Part shown: one piece after another, positions 2,150 to 57,561 of the stretch | Position numbering within the stretch: position 1 is the stretch's first letter | Layout: each line of letters opens with the position of its first letter | Assembly (NCBI GenBank): GCA_963692865.2 | Contig: OY843592.1 | Span: 704,001-768,000 of the forward strand | Source: a bacterium | GTDB lineage: Bacteria > UBA8248 | Reading direction: 5' to 3' | Length of the DNA: 64,000 bases | Program-made: the position numbers and the translations under genes | Notes under the pieces: model-generated | Databases searched by the model: none | Told to the model about the DNA's origin: nothing | The model's input: the letters and a program-made list of their open reading frames with translations, nothing else

Positions 2150-3178
2150 CTACGCCTTCCCGGTACGATCCGCCAGCCCGCGCAGGAGGGTCTCCCGGGA
2201 GACGGCGCCCACGACGGCGCCCGCATCGTCCACCACCCGCAGCGGCGCGTCGCTCTCGACGCACTTGGGCAGCATGTCCTGAAGCACGGTGTCGCGCGAG
2301 ACGAGGGGTCCGGTCGCGTCGCCGCCCGGCGGCGTCATGATGGCGCCCGCCGTCACCACGCGCCCGCGTTTCACCTCGCGCACGAACTCGCGCACGTAGT
2401 CGGTGGCCGGGTTGAGCAGAATCTCCTCCGGTCCGCCTATCTGATCGACCACGCCGTCTTTCAGAATCGCGACGTGGTCGCCCAGCTTGAGGGCCTCGTC
2501 CAGATCGTGGGTGATGAACACGATGGTCTTCTTGAGGTCGCGCTGGAGCGCGACGAGATGTTCCTGCATCTGTTTGCGGATCAGCGGGTCCAGGGCGCTG
2601 AAGGGCTCGTCCATGAGCAGAATTTCGGGATCCGTGCAAAGCGCGCGCGCCAGGCCCACCCGCTGCTGCATGCCGCCCGAGAGCTGGGCCGGGTAGGCGC
2701 TCTCGTAGCCGAGGAGCCCCACGTCCTCTATCCACCGCATCGCGCGCCGCCGGCGCCGGGGGATATCCACGCCCTGCACCTCGAGGCCGTAGCCCACGTT
2801 CTCCATGACCGTCATGTGGGGAAAGAGCGCGAACCGCTGAAAGACCATGCTCACCATGCCGCGGCGGAACGCGAGCAGTTCCTCGGGCGAGAACTCGAGA
2901 ACGTCCTGGCCGTCGACGAGCACCCGGCCCGCGGTCGGGTCGATCAGCCGGTTGACGTGGCGGATCAGGGTCGATTTGCCCGAACCCGAAAGTCCCATGA
3001 CCACGAACGTCTCGCCGCGCTCGACGGAGAGGCCCACGTCTTTGAGGCCCAGCGTGCATCCGGTCTCGGCCAGCACGTTTTTCTTCTCGACTCCCGCGCG
3101 CGCCAGAGCGAGCGCCGCCTCTTGCGCGCGTCCCGTTCCGAATATCTTGTAGACGTTCCGTATCTCGATCAGCGCCAC
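2150..3178 (-). CDS. proV: glycine betaine/proline ABC transporter ATP-binding subunit (ProV/OpuAA family)
   Basis: Walker A GLSGSGKS, signature LSGGMQQRVGLARAL, DEPFSALDPLIR, C-terminal CBS-like region. Confidence 0.9.
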   Translation of the reverse strand: MALIEIRNVYKIFGTGRAQEAALALARAGVEKKNVLAETGCTLGLKDVGLSVERGETFVVMGLSGSGKSTLIRHVNRLIDPTAGRVLVDGQDVLEFSPEELLAFRRGMVSMVFQRFALFPHMTVMENVGYGLEVQGVDIPRRRRRAMRWIEDVGLLGYESAYPAQLSGGMQQRVGLARALCTDPEILLMDEPFSALDPLIRKQMQEHLVALQRDLKKTIVFITHDLDEALKLGDHVAILKDGVVDQIGGPEEILLNPATDYVREFVREVKRGRVVTAGAIMTPPGGDATGPLVSRDTVLQDMLPKCVESDAPLRVVDDAGAVVGAVSRETLLRGLADRTGKA

Positions 3179-3182
3179 CTGT

Positions 3183-4091
3183 TCAGCGCCTCCCGCCCGC
3201 GCGGATGAACCGCCCGCCGTAGGCCTGGGTCACCCGGTCCATGACGATGGCGAGCAGCACGATCGCCACGCCGGCTTCCAGCGCGCGCCCGACGTTGAGC
3301 TGCTGGAGGCCGATGAGCACTTCGGTGCCGAGCCCCCGGGTTCCGATCATCGAGGCGATCACCACCATCGAGAGCGCCATCATCGTGGTCTGGTTGACCC
3401 CCTGCATGATGTTGGGCAGCGCCATCGGCATCTGCACGCGAAGGAGCTTCTGCCTCCGGCTCGCGCCCATGGCGTCGGAAGCCTCGACCAGGTCTTCATC
3501 CACCAGGCGGATGCCCAAGTCGGTCAGGCGGATCACCGGCGGGATGGCGTAGATCACCGTGGCGAAGACGGCGGGCACGGCGCCCAGGCCGAAGAGCATG
3601 ATCGCCGGAATGAGATAGACGAAACTCGGCATGGTCTGCATGAGGTCGAGCGCGGGCAGCACCATGTCGCGCATCCGGTTGTTTCTCGAAATCACGATGC
3701 CGATCGGGACGCCCAGGCCGATGCAGATGACGGTGGAGACGAGCATCACCGAGAAAGTCATCATCGACAAATCCCATAGCCTGGGATCGGTGAGGCCGAT
3801 GAAGAACATGCAGGCGACCACGAGCGCGGTCAGGCTCCATTTGCGCCCGCCCGCGAAGTAGGTGAGCGCTCCCACGCCCGCGAACACGACGAGCCAGGGG
3901 AGATCGCGCAAGAAGCGCTCGAGGCCGACCAGCAGCACGAGAACCGCGTCCGAGGTGGTCTCGAAAATAACCCCGTAATCGGAGACCAGCCACTCGACGA
4001 AATCGTTGGTCCATTTGTTGAGCGGCAGGTTCAGGCCCTTGGGCCACTCGACCGCCCAGTCGGGGAACAGTCCGCGGATAAACTTCATCAA
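3183..4091 (-). CDS. proW: glycine betaine/proline ABC transporter permease (ProW family)
   Basis: LDLMQTMPSFVYLIP, RLTDLGIR, NQTTMMALSMVVIASMIG; multiple TM segments. Confidence 0.9.
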   Translation of the reverse strand: MMKFIRGLFPDWAVEWPKGLNLPLNKWTNDFVEWLVSDYGVIFETTSDAVLVLLVGLERFLRDLPWLVVFAGVGALTYFAGGRKWSLTALVVACMFFIGLTDPRLWDLSMMTFSVMLVSTVICIGLGVPIGIVISRNNRMRDMVLPALDLMQTMPSFVYLIPAIMLFGLGAVPAVFATVIYAIPPVIRLTDLGIRLVDEDLVEASDAMGASRRQKLLRVQMPMALPNIMQGVNQTTMMALSMVVIASMIGTRGLGTEVLIGLQQLNVGRALEAGVAIVLLAIVMDRVTQAYGGRFIRAGGRR

Positions 4092-6520: not shown

Positions 6521-7571
6521 TAAAAAGAGCCCGCAAAAATCCGTCTCTTTTCTCACCGGCGGAGATCTGGCGCCCGACAGGGCTTCGGCCAGGGGAATGT
6601 TCGGCCGCCTGGGGAAGCTCTTCCGCGAGGCCGATTTTTCCTTCGCGAACCTGGAGAATGCGCTTTCCACGCGCGGCGAGCTGATGAAGGGAAAGCCGAC
6701 GCGCCACCGGGGGCATCCCTCGCTCGCGGCGGGGCTGGTGGACGCGGGCTTCGATGCCGTGGGAATCGCCAACAACCACGTGCTCGACTTCGGGGTTCCC
6801 TCTTTGGAGGAAACGATGATGACGCTGCGCCGCGCGGGAATTCCCTTCACGGGCGCGGGCATGGGCCTGGACGAAGCGCGCGCGCCCGTCGTGCTCGAAC
6901 GCGGCGGACTTGCAATCGGCCTCCTCGCCTATTCGTCCGTGCTCCCTCAGGGCCATGCGGCGGGCCCGGATGAGCCCGGCGTGAACCCGCTGCGCGTCAA
7001 AACCTCTTACACGCCGCTCAGGAACCTGGATGAATACCCGGCCTCCGAACCCGTCATCCACTCCTGGGCGGAGGCGGGGGACCTTGCGCGGATGAAAGGG
7101 GACATCGAGCGGCTCAGGACCCAAGTCGACCTGGTCTTCGTCTACCAGCACTGGGGAGCGAGCCTGCGCCACGAGGTGCACGAGCATCAAAGGCAAATCG
7201 GACACGCGGCGATCGACGCGGGCGCGTGCGCCGTTTTCGGCGGACACCAGCACGTGCTCTCCGCCGTCGAGTTCTATCATGGCCGGCCCATCGTCCACTG
7301 CACCGGAAATCTGATCTTCGAAGAAATCGAGCCTTTCTTCACCGAGGCGACGAGCCAGACGTTCCTGCTGGGCGGGCGGATGGACAAGGAAGGGGTGAGC
7401 GACCTTCACCTCATCCCCTGCCATTGCGGCGTGGGGCGCGCGCCCCGGCTCCTTTCGCCGAGGCGCGGCGAGGGCCGCGAGATCGTGAACATGATGCAAA
7501 ACCTCTCCGCCCCCTACGGAACGGAGATCGCCGTCAGGGACGGGGAGGTCGCCGTCTCGCCGCTTGCTTAA
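6513..7571 (+). CDS. CapA/PGA_cap family metallophosphoesterase-like protein
   Basis: GD...NLE...ANNHVLDFG...HWG...GGHQHV...GNLIF; start overlaps the upstream stop. Confidence 0.85.
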   Translation: MNNKKSPQKSVSFLTGGDLAPDRASARGMFGRLGKLFREADFSFANLENALSTRGELMKGKPTRHRGHPSLAAGLVDAGFDAVGIANNHVLDFGVPSLEETMMTLRRAGIPFTGAGMGLDEARAPVVLERGGLAIGLLAYSSVLPQGHAAGPDEPGVNPLRVKTSYTPLRNLDEYPASEPVIHSWAEAGDLARMKGDIERLRTQVDLVFVYQHWGASLRHEVHEHQRQIGHAAIDAGACAVFGGHQHVLSAVEFYHGRPIVHCTGNLIFEEIEPFFTEATSQTFLLGGRMDKEGVSDLHLIPCHCGVGRAPRLLSPRRGEGREIVNMMQNLSAPYGTEIAVRDGEVAVSPLA

Positions 7572-53015: not shown

Positions 53016-53978
53016 GTGAGCGACAAGAACCTGCAAGCGATATCATCTGCAAGTCGTCAGATTGCGCTTGTCGGGCGTTCCGGACAACCGTCTCCACAAG
53101 TAGGGAACGAATCGCAAGAACCTCATGTTCGAGTTGACTCGTTGAACAGAGCGCCATTCGAGGCTATTTCTCGCCCAATGGTGATTTGTGGCGATGCCAC
53201 GCAAGCTCTGAAGCTTCTCCCTGAAAAGTCCATTCAAACGGTTGTCACGTCACCGCCCTATTGGTCATTGCGCGATTACGGGGTTGAGGAACAGATTGGG
53301 CGGGACGACAGTCTGCGGAGCTATGTCAAGAGCATCGTTTGCACCTTCGAGCAGATAAGGCGCGTCTTGCGCGACGATGGCACTGTTTGGCTGAACGTTG
53401 GTGATTCCTACACATCCGGCAACCGGAGATATCGTGCGCCAGATCGGAAAAACCGTGCACGCGCCATGTCAGTGCGACCGCCTACGCCAGAAGGACTGAA
53501 ACCAAAAGACTTGATAGGTGTTCCTTGGAGATTGGCGTTCGCTCTGCAAGATGCGGGTTGGTGGGTACGAAGTGAAGTCATATGGCACAAGCCGAATGCC
53601 CATCCGGAGTCCGTTCGAGACCGACCGACCAAAGCTCATGAGACGGTTTTCCTCTTGTCAAAGGACAAGGGCTATTACTACGACCACGAAATCGTCAAGG
53701 GGCCGCGCGACCGTCGCCTGCGAACGGTTTGGGAGATTCCCACTGAACCGGTGAAGCGCGTGAATGGGAAAGCAGATGACCATCCCGCGATGATGCCTCT
53801 CACGCTTGCTCGATGCTGTGTAGCCATTACAAGCCGCGATGACAGTATCGTACTCGACCCGTATGCGGGTTCGGGAACAACGCTTCTGGCGGCGCGTGAA
53901 CTCGGGCGAAGGTGGGTTGGGATTGAAATCAAGCCCGCTTTCGTGGACCTGATTGAACGGCGGTTGTGCGTGTCATGA
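53016..53978 (+). CDS. beta-class amino-DNA methyltransferase (probable N4-cytosine, M.SmaI/M.Cfr9I-like)
   Basis: Motif IV TSPPY precedes motif I DPYAGSGTT; KPKDLIGVPWRLAFALQ; visibly lower GC than flanks. Confidence 0.9.
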   Translation: MSDKNLQAISSASRQIALVGRSGQPSPQVGNESQEPHVRVDSLNRAPFEAISRPMVICGDATQALKLLPEKSIQTVVTSPPYWSLRDYGVEEQIGRDDSLRSYVKSIVCTFEQIRRVLRDDGTVWLNVGDSYTSGNRRYRAPDRKNRARAMSVRPPTPEGLKPKDLIGVPWRLAFALQDAGWWVRSEVIWHKPNAHPESVRDRPTKAHETVFLLSKDKGYYYDHEIVKGPRDRRLRTVWEIPTEPVKRVNGKADDHPAMMPLTLARCCVAITSRDDSIVLDPYAGSGTTLLAARELGRRWVGIEIKPAFVDLIERRLCVS

Positions 53979-54730
53979 CGCTCGATGAACTCAAGGCGAC
54001 TCTCGATTCGTTCTCACCGGTCAAGATCGAATTCGTTGCAAGGGTTATGGAATCTTTGGCGAATCCTCCGAGTGCTAACATTCGATCCAGAGGAACATGG
54101 CTGACAAGCGAGCCGGACTGGATTGAATACTTCGGGCTTGCTTTATCGGTTCACCATGGAGCTACTACTGAGCCGCTGGGGCTCTCGTCGTTTGAGGCGG
54201 TGTTCAGAAACGCTTGTGAGCACCTTGGCTGGCCGATTGATCCTCCGGGCTCACGAACCCGGCGATTCGTTGATATGGTCGTTCGGCCTAAGTCAGGCAA
54301 CCGTCGGCGATTGTCTCTAAAGTCCACTGCCGCCAAGAACTTATCCAGGACAACGTTGCATATTTCCAAACTGACGGAGGCAGCATGGGTTCAGGACGCA
54401 CGTACCGCCAGAGATCGACGAGCCCGTACACTTGAGTTATTCAGGGAATACCAGAGGGCCGTTAAGCAGATAGTCATGCTCCGTGCGTTTCGGGAAGACA
54501 TTGGCAAGATACCGTATAAGTATCAGCTCGTTGAGGTTCCAGTCCGCATCTTTGATTCCATTCAGGAGGTACCGCTGAGAGTCTTTGAACGGGATGCGCC
54601 AGTAATCGAATGTACCGTTGGAGATCGCGTGGTGGCAGTTGTGGCCATCGACCGGTCCGATGCAAAGATTACAGTCCGGCGAGTTCAACTTTCTGCCTGC
54701 ACCGTTCATGTGGAATGGGATAGAGCGTAA
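53975..54730 (+). CDS. putative type II restriction endonuclease, SmaI-like
   Basis: ATGA overlap with the MTase. Blocks HH...FE, SRT...D, LKSTAAKNLS...HISK, YQLVEVP and C.VH..WD recall R.SmaI (from memory, not searched). Confidence 0.7.
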   Translation: MTLDELKATLDSFSPVKIEFVARVMESLANPPSANIRSRGTWLTSEPDWIEYFGLALSVHHGATTEPLGLSSFEAVFRNACEHLGWPIDPPGSRTRRFVDMVVRPKSGNRRRLSLKSTAAKNLSRTTLHISKLTEAAWVQDARTARDRRARTLELFREYQRAVKQIVMLRAFREDIGKIPYKYQLVEVPVRIFDSIQEVPLRVFERDAPVIECTVGDRVVAVVAIDRSDAKITVRRVQLSACTVHVEWDRA

Positions 54731-54972: not shown

Positions 54973-55218
54973 ATGTCGGACGCAGAAGTGACGGTCTATT
55001 CGTCCACGTTCTGAGCGCCGTGCAAGGCGGTGAAAGAGTTTCTTTCCCATCACGGCGTGGCGTATACGGAAAAACTCGTTGATCAGGACGAGGAAGCCCT
55101 GGAGGAACTCTTCCGGCGGGCGAACATGCGGGCCACGCCCGTCATATTCATCGGCGAGGAGAAAGTGGTCGGTTTCGACCGGGCGAAGCTCCAGGCGCTT
55201 TTGGGGCTCGCCGCGTGA
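54973..55218 (+). CDS. NrdH/glutaredoxin-like selenoprotein (UxxC), 81 aa
   Basis: RBS AAGGGAG; MSDAEVTVYSSTF-TGA(55012-55014)-APCKAVKEFL...ATPVIFIGEEKVVGFD. The track ORF 55030..55218 lacks the active site. Confidence 0.88.
55012..55058 (+). promoter_or_regulatory. candidate bacterial SECIS hairpin
   Basis: GCGCCGUG (55015-55022) pairs with CACGGCGU (55051-55058); apical stem GAAAG/CUUUC closes loop AGUUU about 22 nt after the UGA. Confidence 0.65.
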
Positions 55219-55514
55219 ACGGGAGGCGGAAGACGCTTCCCTGCCCCGGCTGAGGGCAGCGCATACCCGTCCCGTGGGGCGCGAAGCCGCGCGATCTGAT
55301 CGATTGCGAGAACTGAGCGGGCGTCAGGTTCCGCCTGGGCCGGGCGGAGGGGGCGGAAGCGCTCACCGTCGCGCAGATGGTCTCATGCCCCCTTTGCGGT
55401 GAGTACGTTCCGGTGGATGAGGATACCCCGCCAGGCGCCGTCGTGGAGCACGACGGAAAGAAGCTGCGACTCGAAAAAGAGTTCGGCGCGTTCATCCTCA
55501 CGCCTGCGGAGTAG
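55215..55514 (+). CDS. tandem zinc-ribbon (LysW-like) protein with two in-frame TGA codons read as Sec, 99 aa
   Basis: GTG overlaps the upstream stop (GTGA). MNGRRKTLPCPG-U-GQRIPVPWGAKPRDLIDCEN-U-AGVRFRLGRAEGAEALTVAQMVSCPLCGEYVPVDEDTPPGAVVEHDGKKLRLEKEFGAFILTPAE; TGA at 55251 and 55314; TAG at 55512-55514. Confidence 0.8.
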
Positions 55515-55646
55515 AGGCGGTTTGTGCGGGAACACAAGCGCAGGGCAAGCAATGGGGGTTATTTTCTTCGCAATGGATTCTTTGATAGAGTGTCTTTGCG
55601 CTCGTGGAGAGCGCATTCAGGGCGATGAAGCGCAAGGGAGCAAGCG

Positions 55647-56039
55647 ATGGCTTCTCAACCGCAGGCCGCTGTCCGACCAGCCCGGATTGGCAAATTGAAC
55701 CGGGATTTGCTCGCGCAATTGAAGGAGTTCGAAAATACTCCCGAGGAGGAGCGCTGGCCGGGCGCAACGTGGCCTACGCCTCAGGCGTTTCGGGACGCGG
55801 AGGCGTTCGTTCGTAAGCTGCCGCTGGATTCGGTTCCCATGCCCGATATAGGGCTGGCCGATGACGGAGAAGTCAATTTTCTGTGGAAAAAAGACGGGGT
55901 TCACGTTGATCTGGGATTTTACGGGACGGGCGCCTACTCCTATTTTGCGCGCGGGAAATCGGGGAACAAAATTTATGAAGAGGATGCTCTCGTATCGGAT
56001 GATTTTCCCGGTGAAATTCTAGCATTGTTCAAAAACTGA
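55647..56039 (+). CDS. hypothetical protein
   Basis: RBS AAGGGAG; globular-looking P.P.IG...DGEVNFLW segment; lower GC. Confidence 0.7.
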   Translation: MASQPQAAVRPARIGKLNRDLLAQLKEFENTPEEERWPGATWPTPQAFRDAEAFVRKLPLDSVPMPDIGLADDGEVNFLWKKDGVHVDLGFYGTGAYSYFARGKSGNKIYEEDALVSDDFPGEILALFKN

Positions 56040-56046
56040 CAATACG

Positions 56047-56550
56047 TTGCCGCTCCCAGTATTACACCTCGATGAGTCGAAGAGCGCCGCGCCGGAAATT
56101 TCTCCCGGAATCGTTGAAGACGAAGAACATCTGATTCGCGAAATGTTCAATCCGCAACATATCAACGAAGAAGGGGAAGTAATCGAAAGAGCCATTTCCG
56201 TGAATGAACTGCTTGCAGACGGTTTTTCCGTTCATAGAATACGACATGTTTCGAAGGAATTCGTGGAAAAATCCATACAGGCGAGATTGTCGAGAAAAAG
56301 GAAAGAGCCCTGGACGAGTGAAGGCGTGTCCAGACTAAAGACTCTGGCGGTTCGTCAGATTCTCCTGGACAACGAAAGGGCGTTTGTCGTTATCGATACG
56401 GCCACGGAAGACAATCCCGGACATGCGAGCATCTATTTTGCCGCGCCTCAAAAAGGCAAGGCGTATGCGCGCGATGCGCGTGGTTTCCTTTTGCCGCTTC
56501 TTCAAAACAGGGTCACCCTCGATGAGGCGTATGAGGGCGCAACCGGTTAG
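56047..56550 (+). CDS. hypothetical protein, possible ADP-ribosyltransferase-like fold
   Basis: LIR...GFSVHR...NPGHASI pattern; lower GC; 7 nt after the previous gene. Confidence 0.6.
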   Translation: MPLPVLHLDESKSAAPEISPGIVEDEEHLIREMFNPQHINEEGEVIERAISVNELLADGFSVHRIRHVSKEFVEKSIQARLSRKRKEPWTSEGVSRLKTLAVRQILLDNERAFVVIDTATEDNPGHASIYFAAPQKGKAYARDARGFLLPLLQNRVTLDEAYEGATG

Positions 56551-56604: not shown

Positions 56605-57561
56605 GTGGCTGAACGCGATTTTGAAATCATCATCATCGGGGCGGGGCCGGCCGGGCTGACGGCGGGGCTGTATACGGCGCGCTCGAAGCTGAACGTGGTC
56701 TGCTATGAAAAACTCGCGCCCGGCGGCGAGATTCTCAACACCGAGCACGTGGAGGACTACCCGGGCTTCGAGCTGGTCGGCGGCCAGGAGCTGGCGGCCA
56801 AATTCGCCGATCACGCCATGAAGTTCGGCCTCAAGATCGAGATGGAGGAAGTCACCGAGGTCAGAAAGGACGGGGACGATTTCATCGTCACGACCGACAT
56901 GGGCGTGCGCCGCTGCGGCGCGGTGATCTACACGCCAGGCGGGCATCCGAAGAAGCTCGGCATTCCGGGCGAGGAGCAATACGCCGGCAAGGGCGTGAGC
57001 TACTGCGCGCTCTGCGACGGCGCGTTCTTCCAGGACGAGGTCATCACCGTAATCGGCGGCGGGAACAGCGCCGTGGAAGAGGGCCAGTTCCTCACGAAGT
57101 ACGGCACGAAGGTCTACATCATCCACCGCCGCGACCAGTTCCGCGCCCATGCGGTCCTGGTGGACAAGATCCGCGAGAACCCGAAAGTCGAGATCATCAC
57201 CGACTACGTGGCCGAAGAAGTCGTCGGCGACGACCGGGAGATGAAGAAACTGCGCATCCGGAACGTCAAGACCGACGAGACGAAAGAGATCGACGCGACG
57301 GGCCTTTTCGTCTTCATCGGTTTTATTCCGAACACGGATTTGATAAAAGATCACGTGGAAAAGGACGATGCCGGTTTCATCCTCACGGACCAGAACATGG
57401 AGACCAACGTTCCGGGCCTGTTCGTGGCCGGTGATTGCAGAAGCCAGTTGATTCGCCAGATCACCAACGCGTCGGGCGACGCGACGACGGCGGCGGTGGC
57501 GGCGGAGAAATATCTCGAAGCCCAGGAAGAGGCCAGGAAACAGGCCGCGGCGGCTTCCTAG
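56605..57561 (+). CDS. trxB: thioredoxin-disulfide reductase
   Basis: GAGPAG, GVSYCALCDG, GGGNSAVEE, HRRDQFRA, VPGLFVAGD. Confidence 0.96.
   Translation: MAERDFEIIIIGAGPAGLTAGLYTARSKLNVVCYEKLAPGGEILNTEHVEDYPGFELVGGQELAAKFADHAMKFGLKIEMEEVTEVRKDGDDFIVTTDMGVRRCGAVIYTPGGHPKKLGIPGEEQYAGKGVSYCALCDGAFFQDEVITVIGGGNSAVEEGQFLTKYGTKVYIIHRRDQFRAHAVLVDKIRENPKVEIITDYVAEEVVGDDREMKKLRIRNVKTDETKEIDATGLFVFIGFIPNTDLIKDHVEKDDAGFILTDQNMETNVPGLFVAGDCRSQLIRQITNASGDATTAAVAAEKYLEAQEEARKQAAAAS

Follow-up and report, generated by a model that had tools for sequence, protein, structure and literature searches.

The window analysed here, a 64,000-nucleotide stretch of bacterial DNA (contig OY843592.1 of GenBank assembly GCA_963692865.2, positions 704,001 to 768,000, lineage UBA8248), contains on its forward strand, at positions 55215 to 55514, a previously unannotated gene that, judging from its sequence and its relatives, very probably encodes a selenoprotein with two selenocysteine (Sec) residues. 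The 99-residue product, which we call the ribbon protein, is by profile match and predicted model a tandem of two LysW-type zinc ribbons, and its gene directly follows that of a glutaredoxin-like selenoprotein.

The frame opens with a GTG at 55215 and closes with a TAG at 55512-55514, and its only internal stops are the TGA codons 13 and 34, at 55251-55253 and 55314-55316. Retranslation gives exactly the 99-codon frame that an earlier note, made from the letters alone, had read across these two TGAs, and all of the motifs claimed there are present in the product: C10-P-G-U13, C31-E-N-U34, C58-P-L-C61 and H79. Read as Sec13 and Sec34, the two UGA codons supply the second ligand of knuckle 1 (CPGU) and of knuckle 2 (CENU), and the N-terminal ribbon would hold a full four-ligand site (C10/U13/C31/U34) with Sec as the second ligand of each knuckle. 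The C-terminal ribbon, with the ligands C58, C61 and H79, looks like a structural site of the LysW type.

At this locus the standard list of open reading frames (ORFs) holds only a 45-amino acid ORF at 55377-55514 and a 134-amino acid antisense ORF at 55148-55552, and a gene that is unseen by standard annotation means that a selenoprotein family and its obligate Sec-containing glutaredoxin partner are being missed. In DNA of 61% G+C the mere openness of a frame this long says little; what lifts the gene beyond chance is the combination of a LysW profile match across both TGAs, a match of one half of the protein to the other, and 26 conserved loci. DNA contigs from two public sequencing runs match the window letter for letter over both TGAs, although they may be the source of the assembly itself and are thus not independent. 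Contigs from RNA libraries of relatives cover the junction between the glutaredoxin and ribbon genes and the first UGA, and end near 55310-55321, which shows neither transcription nor an RNA end; one such contig carries TGT at the column of the first UGA.

With U read as C, the NCBIfam LysW model NF041070 matches residues 9-56, spanning both TGAs (E 1.9e-10, 40.6 bits against a cut-off of 75), and the Pfam model Zn_ribbon_LysW (PF21344) matches residues 56-80 (E 4.6e-6, 26.6 bits against a cut-off of 27). AlphaFold2, run on an alignment of 26 rows, predicts an all-beta structure with a mean predicted local distance difference test score of 86.5. A wide search with VIA-align matched residues 53-99 of this model to LysW 3vpb_F (Z 8.2, root-mean-square deviation 1.0 over 47 residues, 36% identity) and to LysW 3wwl_A (Z 6.2), with the next rows at a Z of 3.8 or less; the top row of a Foldseek search against the PDB was also LysW (3vpb_E, E 0.014), and no match was found there at E <= 0.001. 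A profile search of PDB sequences aligned ...VEH-DG... of the ribbon protein to VEHECG of Sulfolobus tokodaii LysW, with an E-value of 1.6e-5. BLASTP aligns one half of the protein with the other (E 2e-6, 31% identity over 48 residues), and in this alignment C31 stands opposite H79, with U34 in a three-residue gap. The profile and fold matches thus bear out the LysW-type architecture that had been proposed from the knuckle spacing, and the alignment of the halves agrees with the proposed internal repeat in which H79 is the equivalent of C31.

The orthologue set comes from a six-frame search that covered 61 genomes (that of the window and 60 relatives), 27 of which gave a match. The matches L029 (E 0.008) and L030 (E 0.0015) were discarded after translation, which revealed no conserved pattern, and 26 loci were kept, including that of the window. 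The frame is intact at all 26, with no other stops or frameshifts, and the two columns hold only TGA or TGC/TGT: fifteen TGA and eleven Cys codons at site 1, ten and sixteen at site 2. Both sites are TGA at nine loci, site 1 only at six and site 2 only at one, while the remaining ten are all-Cys forms. Sec also stands at site 1 of the most distant locus, L097, which is only 33% identical. In the orthologue alignment (A1) C10, C13, C31, C34, C58 and C61 are invariant, as are A35 and G36, and the conservation of H79 is at least 90%. The 20 codons that separate the two TGAs are, among members of the genus, variable at 9, 5 and 14 sites in codon positions 1, 2 and 3 respectively, and this third-position bias is the pattern expected of coding sequence.

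Wider samples repeat this pattern. Eight of the eleven further metagenome loci that cover site 1 have TGA there; these loci were sampled with a pattern from alignment A1 that demands Cys at site 2, where Sec was consequently undetectable. A profile search of a sample of the phylum found the gene in 30 of 51 genomes, with two TGAs in nine, one in nine and none in twelve. The recurrence of TGA at the same columns across genomes excludes an assembly error. All eleven database relatives of near-equal length to the window protein are fragments of 63-75 amino acids that begin after a TGA, and a profile search of 1.84 billion representative sequences yielded 90 proteins at E <= 1e-3, 39 of them at E <= 1e-10. 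Many of the proteins start beyond residue 24 or 38, as expected of calls cut short at a TGA. The ten clusters that were looked up carry only the name 'hypothetical protein' and one mis-annotation, and in the ESM Atlas an all-Cys homologue lies beside unnamed clusters of about 94 amino acids with a LysW-like domain. The family is small.

The C-termini of the orthologues are not conserved; the last residue may be E, L, G or I, some orthologues have long tails, and in the genus of the window the final residue is Glu. The residue that follows H79 is D, C or G, and we record as an observation only that the five orthologues of alignment A1 with G at this position (L017-L020 and L022) are all tailed, with Cys in four of the five tails. 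A third Sec, read from extra TGAs at the 3' end of L016, L021, L023, L024 and L025, was considered and rejected, as these TGAs fall at the start of the following gene or precede unconserved sequence.

The genome of the window holds SelA (505 bits), a SelB wing domain (78.9 bits) encoded by a gene adjoining selA, SelD (334.6 bits) and two genes for tRNA-Sec(tca) found with ARAGORN. The Sec decoding system is therefore complete, and each of selA, selB, selC and selD, which the reading of two Sec codons in the earlier note called for, is accounted for. The selD gene (G000:C1:65915-66877; L032) has one in-frame TGA of its own, so that SelD is itself a selenoprotein. The two tRNA-Sec genes lie on different contigs, around 1207500 of C1 and around 29715 of a second contig, and the assembly has a contamination of 6.69%; one of the two may be a duplicate or come from a different organism.

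Both UGA codons are followed on the same strand by candidate hairpins of the Sec insertion sequence (SECIS) type, each beginning 14 nucleotides after its UGA, a distance judged against the general SECIS spacing rule. Hairpin 1 (55267-55283) has a stem of 5-6 base pairs and a CGUG loop; RNAalifold, applied to the fifteen sequences with Sec at this site, gives a consensus of -4.66 kcal/mol, with two pairs changed on both sides, and one stem pair is GC in nine sequences, GU in four and AU in two. Hairpin 2 (55329-55349), the strong one, has a stem of 8-9 base pairs with a G-rich loop of 3-5 nucleotides, a consensus of -16.72 kcal/mol over the ten Sec-bearing sequences, a stem present in all ten, and one double compensatory pair; distant Cys forms encode other residues at this position and lack the stem. 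At gathering threshold Rfam recognises no family anywhere in the window, which says little, as it is uncertain whether Rfam holds a model of the bacterial SECIS. The SECIS evidence at both UGAs is consistent with Sec insertion but not decisive, and it joins the interchange of Sec and Cys at both columns and the complete decoding machinery in upholding the claim of two Sec codons.

The gene directly upstream (54973-55218, forward strand) encodes an 81-amino acid glutaredoxin-like selenoprotein with the motif U14-A-P-C17. Its product matches Pfam Glutaredoxin (1.6e-15) and, in NCBIfam, TIGR02196 YruB (1.6e-22) and NrdH (1.7e-13), with all NCBIfam scores under the curated cut-offs. This partner lies directly upstream of the ribbon gene at all 26 loci, with Sec in its UxxC motif at every one of them. 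In the window the GTG of the ribbon gene overlaps the TGA stop of the glutaredoxin gene (GTGA), and this four-nucleotide overlap of stop and start recurs at 20 of the 26 loci; translational coupling of the ribbon gene to a dedicated UxxC glutaredoxin-like selenoprotein, as predicted from this arrangement, is strongly supported. A promoter and terminator scan returned one promoter-like site, where 0.8 would be expected, and none ahead of the pair. In the alignment of the partner proteins (A4) residues 23-28, F-L-S-H-H-G, follow the UxxC motif, with F23, L24 and S25 invariant and H26 and H27 at least 90% conserved, and this His pair next to the active site might provide an additional ligand for metal.

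NrdH-type proteins are reduced by thioredoxin reductase, and further downstream on the same strand the window carries a gene for this enzyme, TrxB (56605-57561), which scores 362.2 bits against a cut-off of 343.45 with TIGR01292 and also matches Pfam Pyr_redox_2. TrxB is likely to be the reductant of the glutaredoxin-like partner; within the genus, as well as in further genera of the family, its gene comes after the pair. At 55647-56550 of the forward strand, in the interval that separates the ribbon gene from trxB, are two ORFs of 130 and 167 amino acids with a low codon score, for which no Pfam match and no significant NCBIfam match was found (best E 0.0046). They are present at 8 of the 26 loci, and elsewhere trxB is directly next, which marks them as a variable insert. 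On the other side of the pair, at 53016-54730, a DNA methylase (N6_N4_Mtase, 3.7e-47) and a SmaI-like endonuclease (4e-5, below the cut-off) sit between an MmgE/PrpD gene and the glutaredoxin gene in the window's genome only; elsewhere in the genus the glutaredoxin gene comes straight after PrpD. A TrxB-like ORF of 541 amino acids at L039:8725-10350 (forward strand) has an N-terminal extension of about 220 residues without a Pfam match, and may be a fusion or an over-long call.

The surroundings of the pair in relatives give insight into the company it keeps. Fourteen loci were enlarged, and their genes were called with a codon model trained on the window's genome and then clustered. Genes of the mercury-resistance (mer) type follow the pair in 12 of the 13 enlarged loci outside the genus, and also in 10 of 12 loci from metagenomes and in all 5 further loci from genomes. 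The families found in the enlarged loci include MerE (PF05052, above the cut-off), MerT-like proteins, MerF (PF11431, 5.6e-20), fragments of the UxxU metal-binding protein NF041115, CopZ_Nterm_CC (NF047645, above the cut-off) and a MerR-like regulator. The best match of this regulator is TIGR02051 MerR (1.8e-36, below the cut-off), and the spacing of its Cys residues, C-35-C-9-C, is that of Tn21 MerR. In sister genera the glutaredoxin and the ribbon protein are the first two genes of such MerR-regulated clusters. In the loci of one family TrxB, a NuoI-like ferredoxin and nicotinate phosphoribosyltransferase come next, and in two class-level relatives AhpC/TSA-type redoxins follow the pair.

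Several genes of these operons contain in-frame TGA codons of their own. Just after the ribbon gene of L047, at 7026-7403 (forward strand), lies a MerT-like gene with an in-frame TGA in A-C-U-I-G-P (a CU pair), of which gene calling retains only the C-terminal 76 amino acids. At L038 (5097-5267 and 5647-5784, reverse strand), with homologues at L041, L042, L043 and L045, ORFs of 45-56 amino acids match the C-terminal part of NF041115 and are presumably cut off at their Sec codons. An in-frame TGA is thus read in four kinds of protein in the operons of sister genera: the glutaredoxin, the ribbon protein, the CU-type MerT and the UxxU protein with a heavy-metal-binding domain (HMA). The only class-I flavoprotein seen, at two loci, scores 302 bits against a MerA cut-off of 454 and ends in ...SDIAYML, without the C-terminal Cys pair that is a feature of MerA. 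At L097 the pair adjoins an rve-type transposase (339-1781), followed by a cytochrome-c-domain protein (2616-3227) with repeated NPCAAK motifs in its N-terminal part.

We propose, with chances that we judge to be about even, that the role of the two-Sec ribbon selenoprotein includes the handling of a thiophilic metal, most likely Hg(II), and that the protein is serviced in this by the Sec-containing glutaredoxin and TrxB. The UxxC glutaredoxin partner, TrxB and the mer-type operons of sister genera are what favour a soft-metal role. On this proposal the N-terminal Cys2Sec2 site would bind the metal ion, its identity as Hg(II) being suggested by the context, and in the full operons the ribbon protein would act as a cytosolic acceptor or holding site for Hg(II) imported by MerE, MerT or MerF, a role taken in classical mer systems by CxxC domains of the NmerA/MerP type. 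The glutaredoxin, recycled by TrxB, would hold the selenolates and thiolates of the ribbon reduced, or exchange metal with it. The genus of the window would have lost, or never had, the genes for importers, HMA protein and regulator, and have kept the glutaredoxin, the ribbon protein and TrxB. The earlier note had offered a redox-switchable zinc or iron sensor, or a carrier of selenium or metal; the context favours the binding and hand-off of a soft metal, mercury, over the sensor and selenium-carrier options, while a redox switch is still compatible with what was found.

A more far-reaching version, which we advance as doubtful, takes the Sec-glutaredoxin and the two-Sec ribbon protein as the cytosolic core of a selenium-based pathway for mercury or other soft metals that operates in the absence of MerA. 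Import of Hg(II) would be by MerE or MerF, or by the CU-type MerT and the UxxU HMA protein, and the ion would be captured at the Cys2Sec2 site, where it might be held as an inert selenolate complex or be reduced through TrxB and the Sec-glutaredoxin. Tetraselenolate complexes of mercury have been proposed in animals, and capture at a Cys2Sec2 site would be their bacterial counterpart. If true, this would add a new chemistry to mercury detoxification, and no earlier selenoprotein would have Sec, encoded genetically, as a ligand in the metal site of a zinc ribbon. The existence of selenium-rich operons in which no canonical MerA was seen makes selenium-assisted mercury handling in bacteria directly testable, and the natural series of Sec and Cys forms at each position allows one to ask what selenium adds to a metal site.

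A number of observations weigh against the reading of a two-Sec protein that handles mercury. No canonical mercuric reductase MerA was seen in the mer-type clusters, and a tblastn search of the window's genome at E <= 1e-4 found no MerE, neither of two MerT types, and no MerF, UxxU HMA protein, CopZ-N, MerR or YnfA. The conserved unit in that genome consists only of the glutaredoxin, the ribbon protein and TrxB, and the link to mercury there comes from relatives only. The neighbours at L097, a transposase and a cytochrome c, include no mer genes. The adjacency of TrxB was seen in one taxonomic family only and could be inherited synteny, and the pair itself is missing from 10 of the 22 genomes of the genus and is hence accessory. 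The orthologues are kin, and their counts overstate the number of independent exchanges between Sec and Cys. Hairpin 1 is short and weak, and is also present in some Cys forms since it encodes the conserved VPWD. By mean energy of the best hairpin, Sec and Cys forms are not told apart at site 1 (-10.1 and -12.3 kcal/mol respectively) and only modestly so at site 2 (-15.9 and -11.9 kcal/mol); G+C-rich coding sequence folds in any case, and we have relied on the position and conservation of the hairpins rather than on their energy.

Some alternatives concern whether there is such a protein at all, or whether it does the work of its closest known relatives. If the region were a pseudogene with two nonsense codons or an assembly error, or if only the 45-amino acid ORF at 55377-55514 were made, standard calling would see short fragments and the public calls of relatives would be truncated, both of which are the case, and the weakness of hairpin 1 fits as well. 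Interchange of TGA with Cys codons alone at the two columns, in otherwise intact frames, speaks against this, as do the conservation of the region upstream of the second TGA as protein, its match to LysW, the presence of the Sec machinery and the agreement of the DNA contigs with the window, subject to their possible shared source; we regard it as very improbable that the gene is not as read. A function as amino-group carrier in lysine or arginine biosynthesis, as for LysW and ArgW, is suggested by the closest matches in sequence and in structure, all of them LysW, and by the C-terminal Glu in the genus of the window. The acidic tail of the EDWGE type is absent, however; the protein ends in ...FILTPAE, in agreement with what had been noted from the sequence, and among orthologues the C-terminus is unconserved. 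Both LysW scores, 40.6 and 26.6 bits, fall under their curated cut-offs (75 and 27), and the protein has two tandem ribbons where LysW has a single domain. The neighbours in the window and the fourteen enlarged loci are glutaredoxin, TrxB, mer-type genes, PrpD and nicotinate phosphoribosyltransferase, and no genes like LysX, LysZ, LysY, LysJ or LysK were found in the loci examined, the rest of the genome not having been searched for LysX. The carrier role thus fails on two defining features, the acidic tail and the biosynthetic neighbours, and is close to refuted; we give it almost no weight.

The other two alternatives accept the two-Sec protein and differ on what it does. In a redox relay or switch the CxxU pairs would cycle between zinc-bound selenolate and thiolate and a selenylsulfide or diselenide, with electrons passing from NADPH through TrxB and the Sec-glutaredoxin to the ribbon protein, which would in turn reduce or regulate some target. 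The unit of the window's genus, with nothing beyond glutaredoxin, ribbon protein and TrxB, and with mer-type transporter queries unmatched in the genome, is what such a relay would look like; the partner is a UxxC redoxin at every locus, redoxins of the AhpC/TSA type follow the pair in the two class-level relatives, and a 2026 review of prokaryotic selenoproteins (PMC13188914) counts UxxC and CxxU among the redox-related motifs of many selenoproteins. Yet the Sec residues lie at canonical ligand positions of a zinc ribbon of the LysW fold and not in a thioredoxin fold, no target is evident, and the neighbours outside the genus are mostly metal-handling genes rather than redox enzymes. The relay is a possibility to be taken seriously, though on balance an unlikely one, and it is compatible with a role in metal handling, where Hg(II)-handling thiol and selenol proteins need reduction too. 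Small zinc ribbons are also often interaction modules, and the ribbon protein might hold only structural zinc and bind MerR, another regulator or nucleic acid, with Sec neutral or stabilising. This accords with the MerR-like regulator in the same operons of sister genera and with the ten all-Cys forms among the 26, which indicate that Sec is not essential to the family. It accords less well with the costly retention of Sec at both sites in separate genera, and at site 1 even in L097, which argues for a reactive role, with an obligate coupled Sec-glutaredoxin that indicates chemistry at the Cys/Sec site, or with a genome in which tblastn at E <= 1e-4 found no MerR of that type. We consider a purely regulatory or accessory ribbon to be improbable, and retain the soft-metal proposal with the strength given above.

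Comparison with described selenoproteins places the family in a wider setting. At E <= 1 the models of NCBIfam release 20 give eight matches to the ribbon protein, none of which is NF041115, NF041197, TIGR02605, NF045648 or another selenoprotein model. Table 1 of the review PMC13188914, in the part accessible to us, lists a zinc-ribbon protein of the FmdB family, putatively regulatory (TIGR02605, UxxU, two Sec), a dual-CXXC small protein (NF041197), a UxxU metal-binding protein (NF041115) and a putative mercuric transport protein; no LysW-like entry appears in that part, although the source papers behind the table might use another name, and the main text of the review uses the word 'zinc' once and 'rubredoxin' never. 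That the ribbon protein had not been recognised as a described selenoprotein family therefore still holds for NCBIfam, for Pfam and for the accessible entries of this table. The bacterial selenoproteins entered there mostly have a single Sec, usually in a redox motif, and the two Sec residues at the ligand positions of a zinc ribbon set the ribbon protein apart from them. As far as the accessible entries go, TIGR02605, NF041197 and NF041115 resemble it in being small proteins whose metal or redox motifs of the CxxC type have Sec in place of Cys, twice in some of them, and NF041115-type proteins share operons with it in sister genera; the ribbon protein differs from the UxxU proteins TIGR02605 and NF041115 in having CxxU in both knuckles, a tandem LysW-type ribbon and an obligate Sec-glutaredoxin.

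Haft and Gwadz (2022; bioRxiv 10.1101/2022.07.06.499078), in the portion of the preprint available to us, mention a small group of CU selenoproteins in the MerT family, and a heading of their Discussion states that Sec is unknown in the characterised mercury resistance families. Their CU MerT and SAO proteins, as presented in that portion, likewise place Sec beside Cys in the handling of mercury or organometals, and the CU-type MerT-like gene of L047 fits their MerT group. The SAO locus as given there includes neither the ribbon family nor the glutaredoxin that accompanies it; the words 'ribbon' and 'LysW' are absent from the paper, though its supplements might list the family under another name. 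Nothing relevant came up in full-text literature searches that combined LysW with selenocysteine, or mer operon with glutaredoxin and selenocysteine. With the CxxC domains of NmerA and MerP the likeness is one of proposed role only, as a soluble Cys-rich acceptor of Hg(II) near importers and a MerR-like regulator: the ribbon protein is a zinc ribbon and not a ferredoxin-like HMA domain, and has four ligands, two of them Sec. Unlike in classical mer systems, no canonical MerA was seen beside the ribbon gene, and the window's genome has no mer genes.

Rubredoxin and the zinc-thiolate switches Hsp33 and RsrA share a tetrahedral CxxC...CxxC knuckle, with possible release of the metal on oxidation of its ligands; the profile and structure searches gave no sequence or fold match to any of them, and the best matches are LysW. 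With LysW and ArgW (PF21344, NF041070; PDB 3vpb, 3wwl) the ribbon protein has in common the small beta zinc-ribbon fold and the knuckle pattern. Its C-terminal half superposes on S. tokodaii LysW, with its CxxC...H aligned to CPVC...HEC. It departs from LysW in its two tandem ribbons, in Sec at two of the ligands, in the lack of an acidic carrier tail and in its genetic surroundings of glutaredoxin, TrxB and mer-type genes. Taken together, these comparisons place the ribbon protein as the two-Sec member of an uncharacterised family of tandem LysW fold, which belongs to a known kind of selenoprotein, one with Sec in place of Cys at a metal or redox site.

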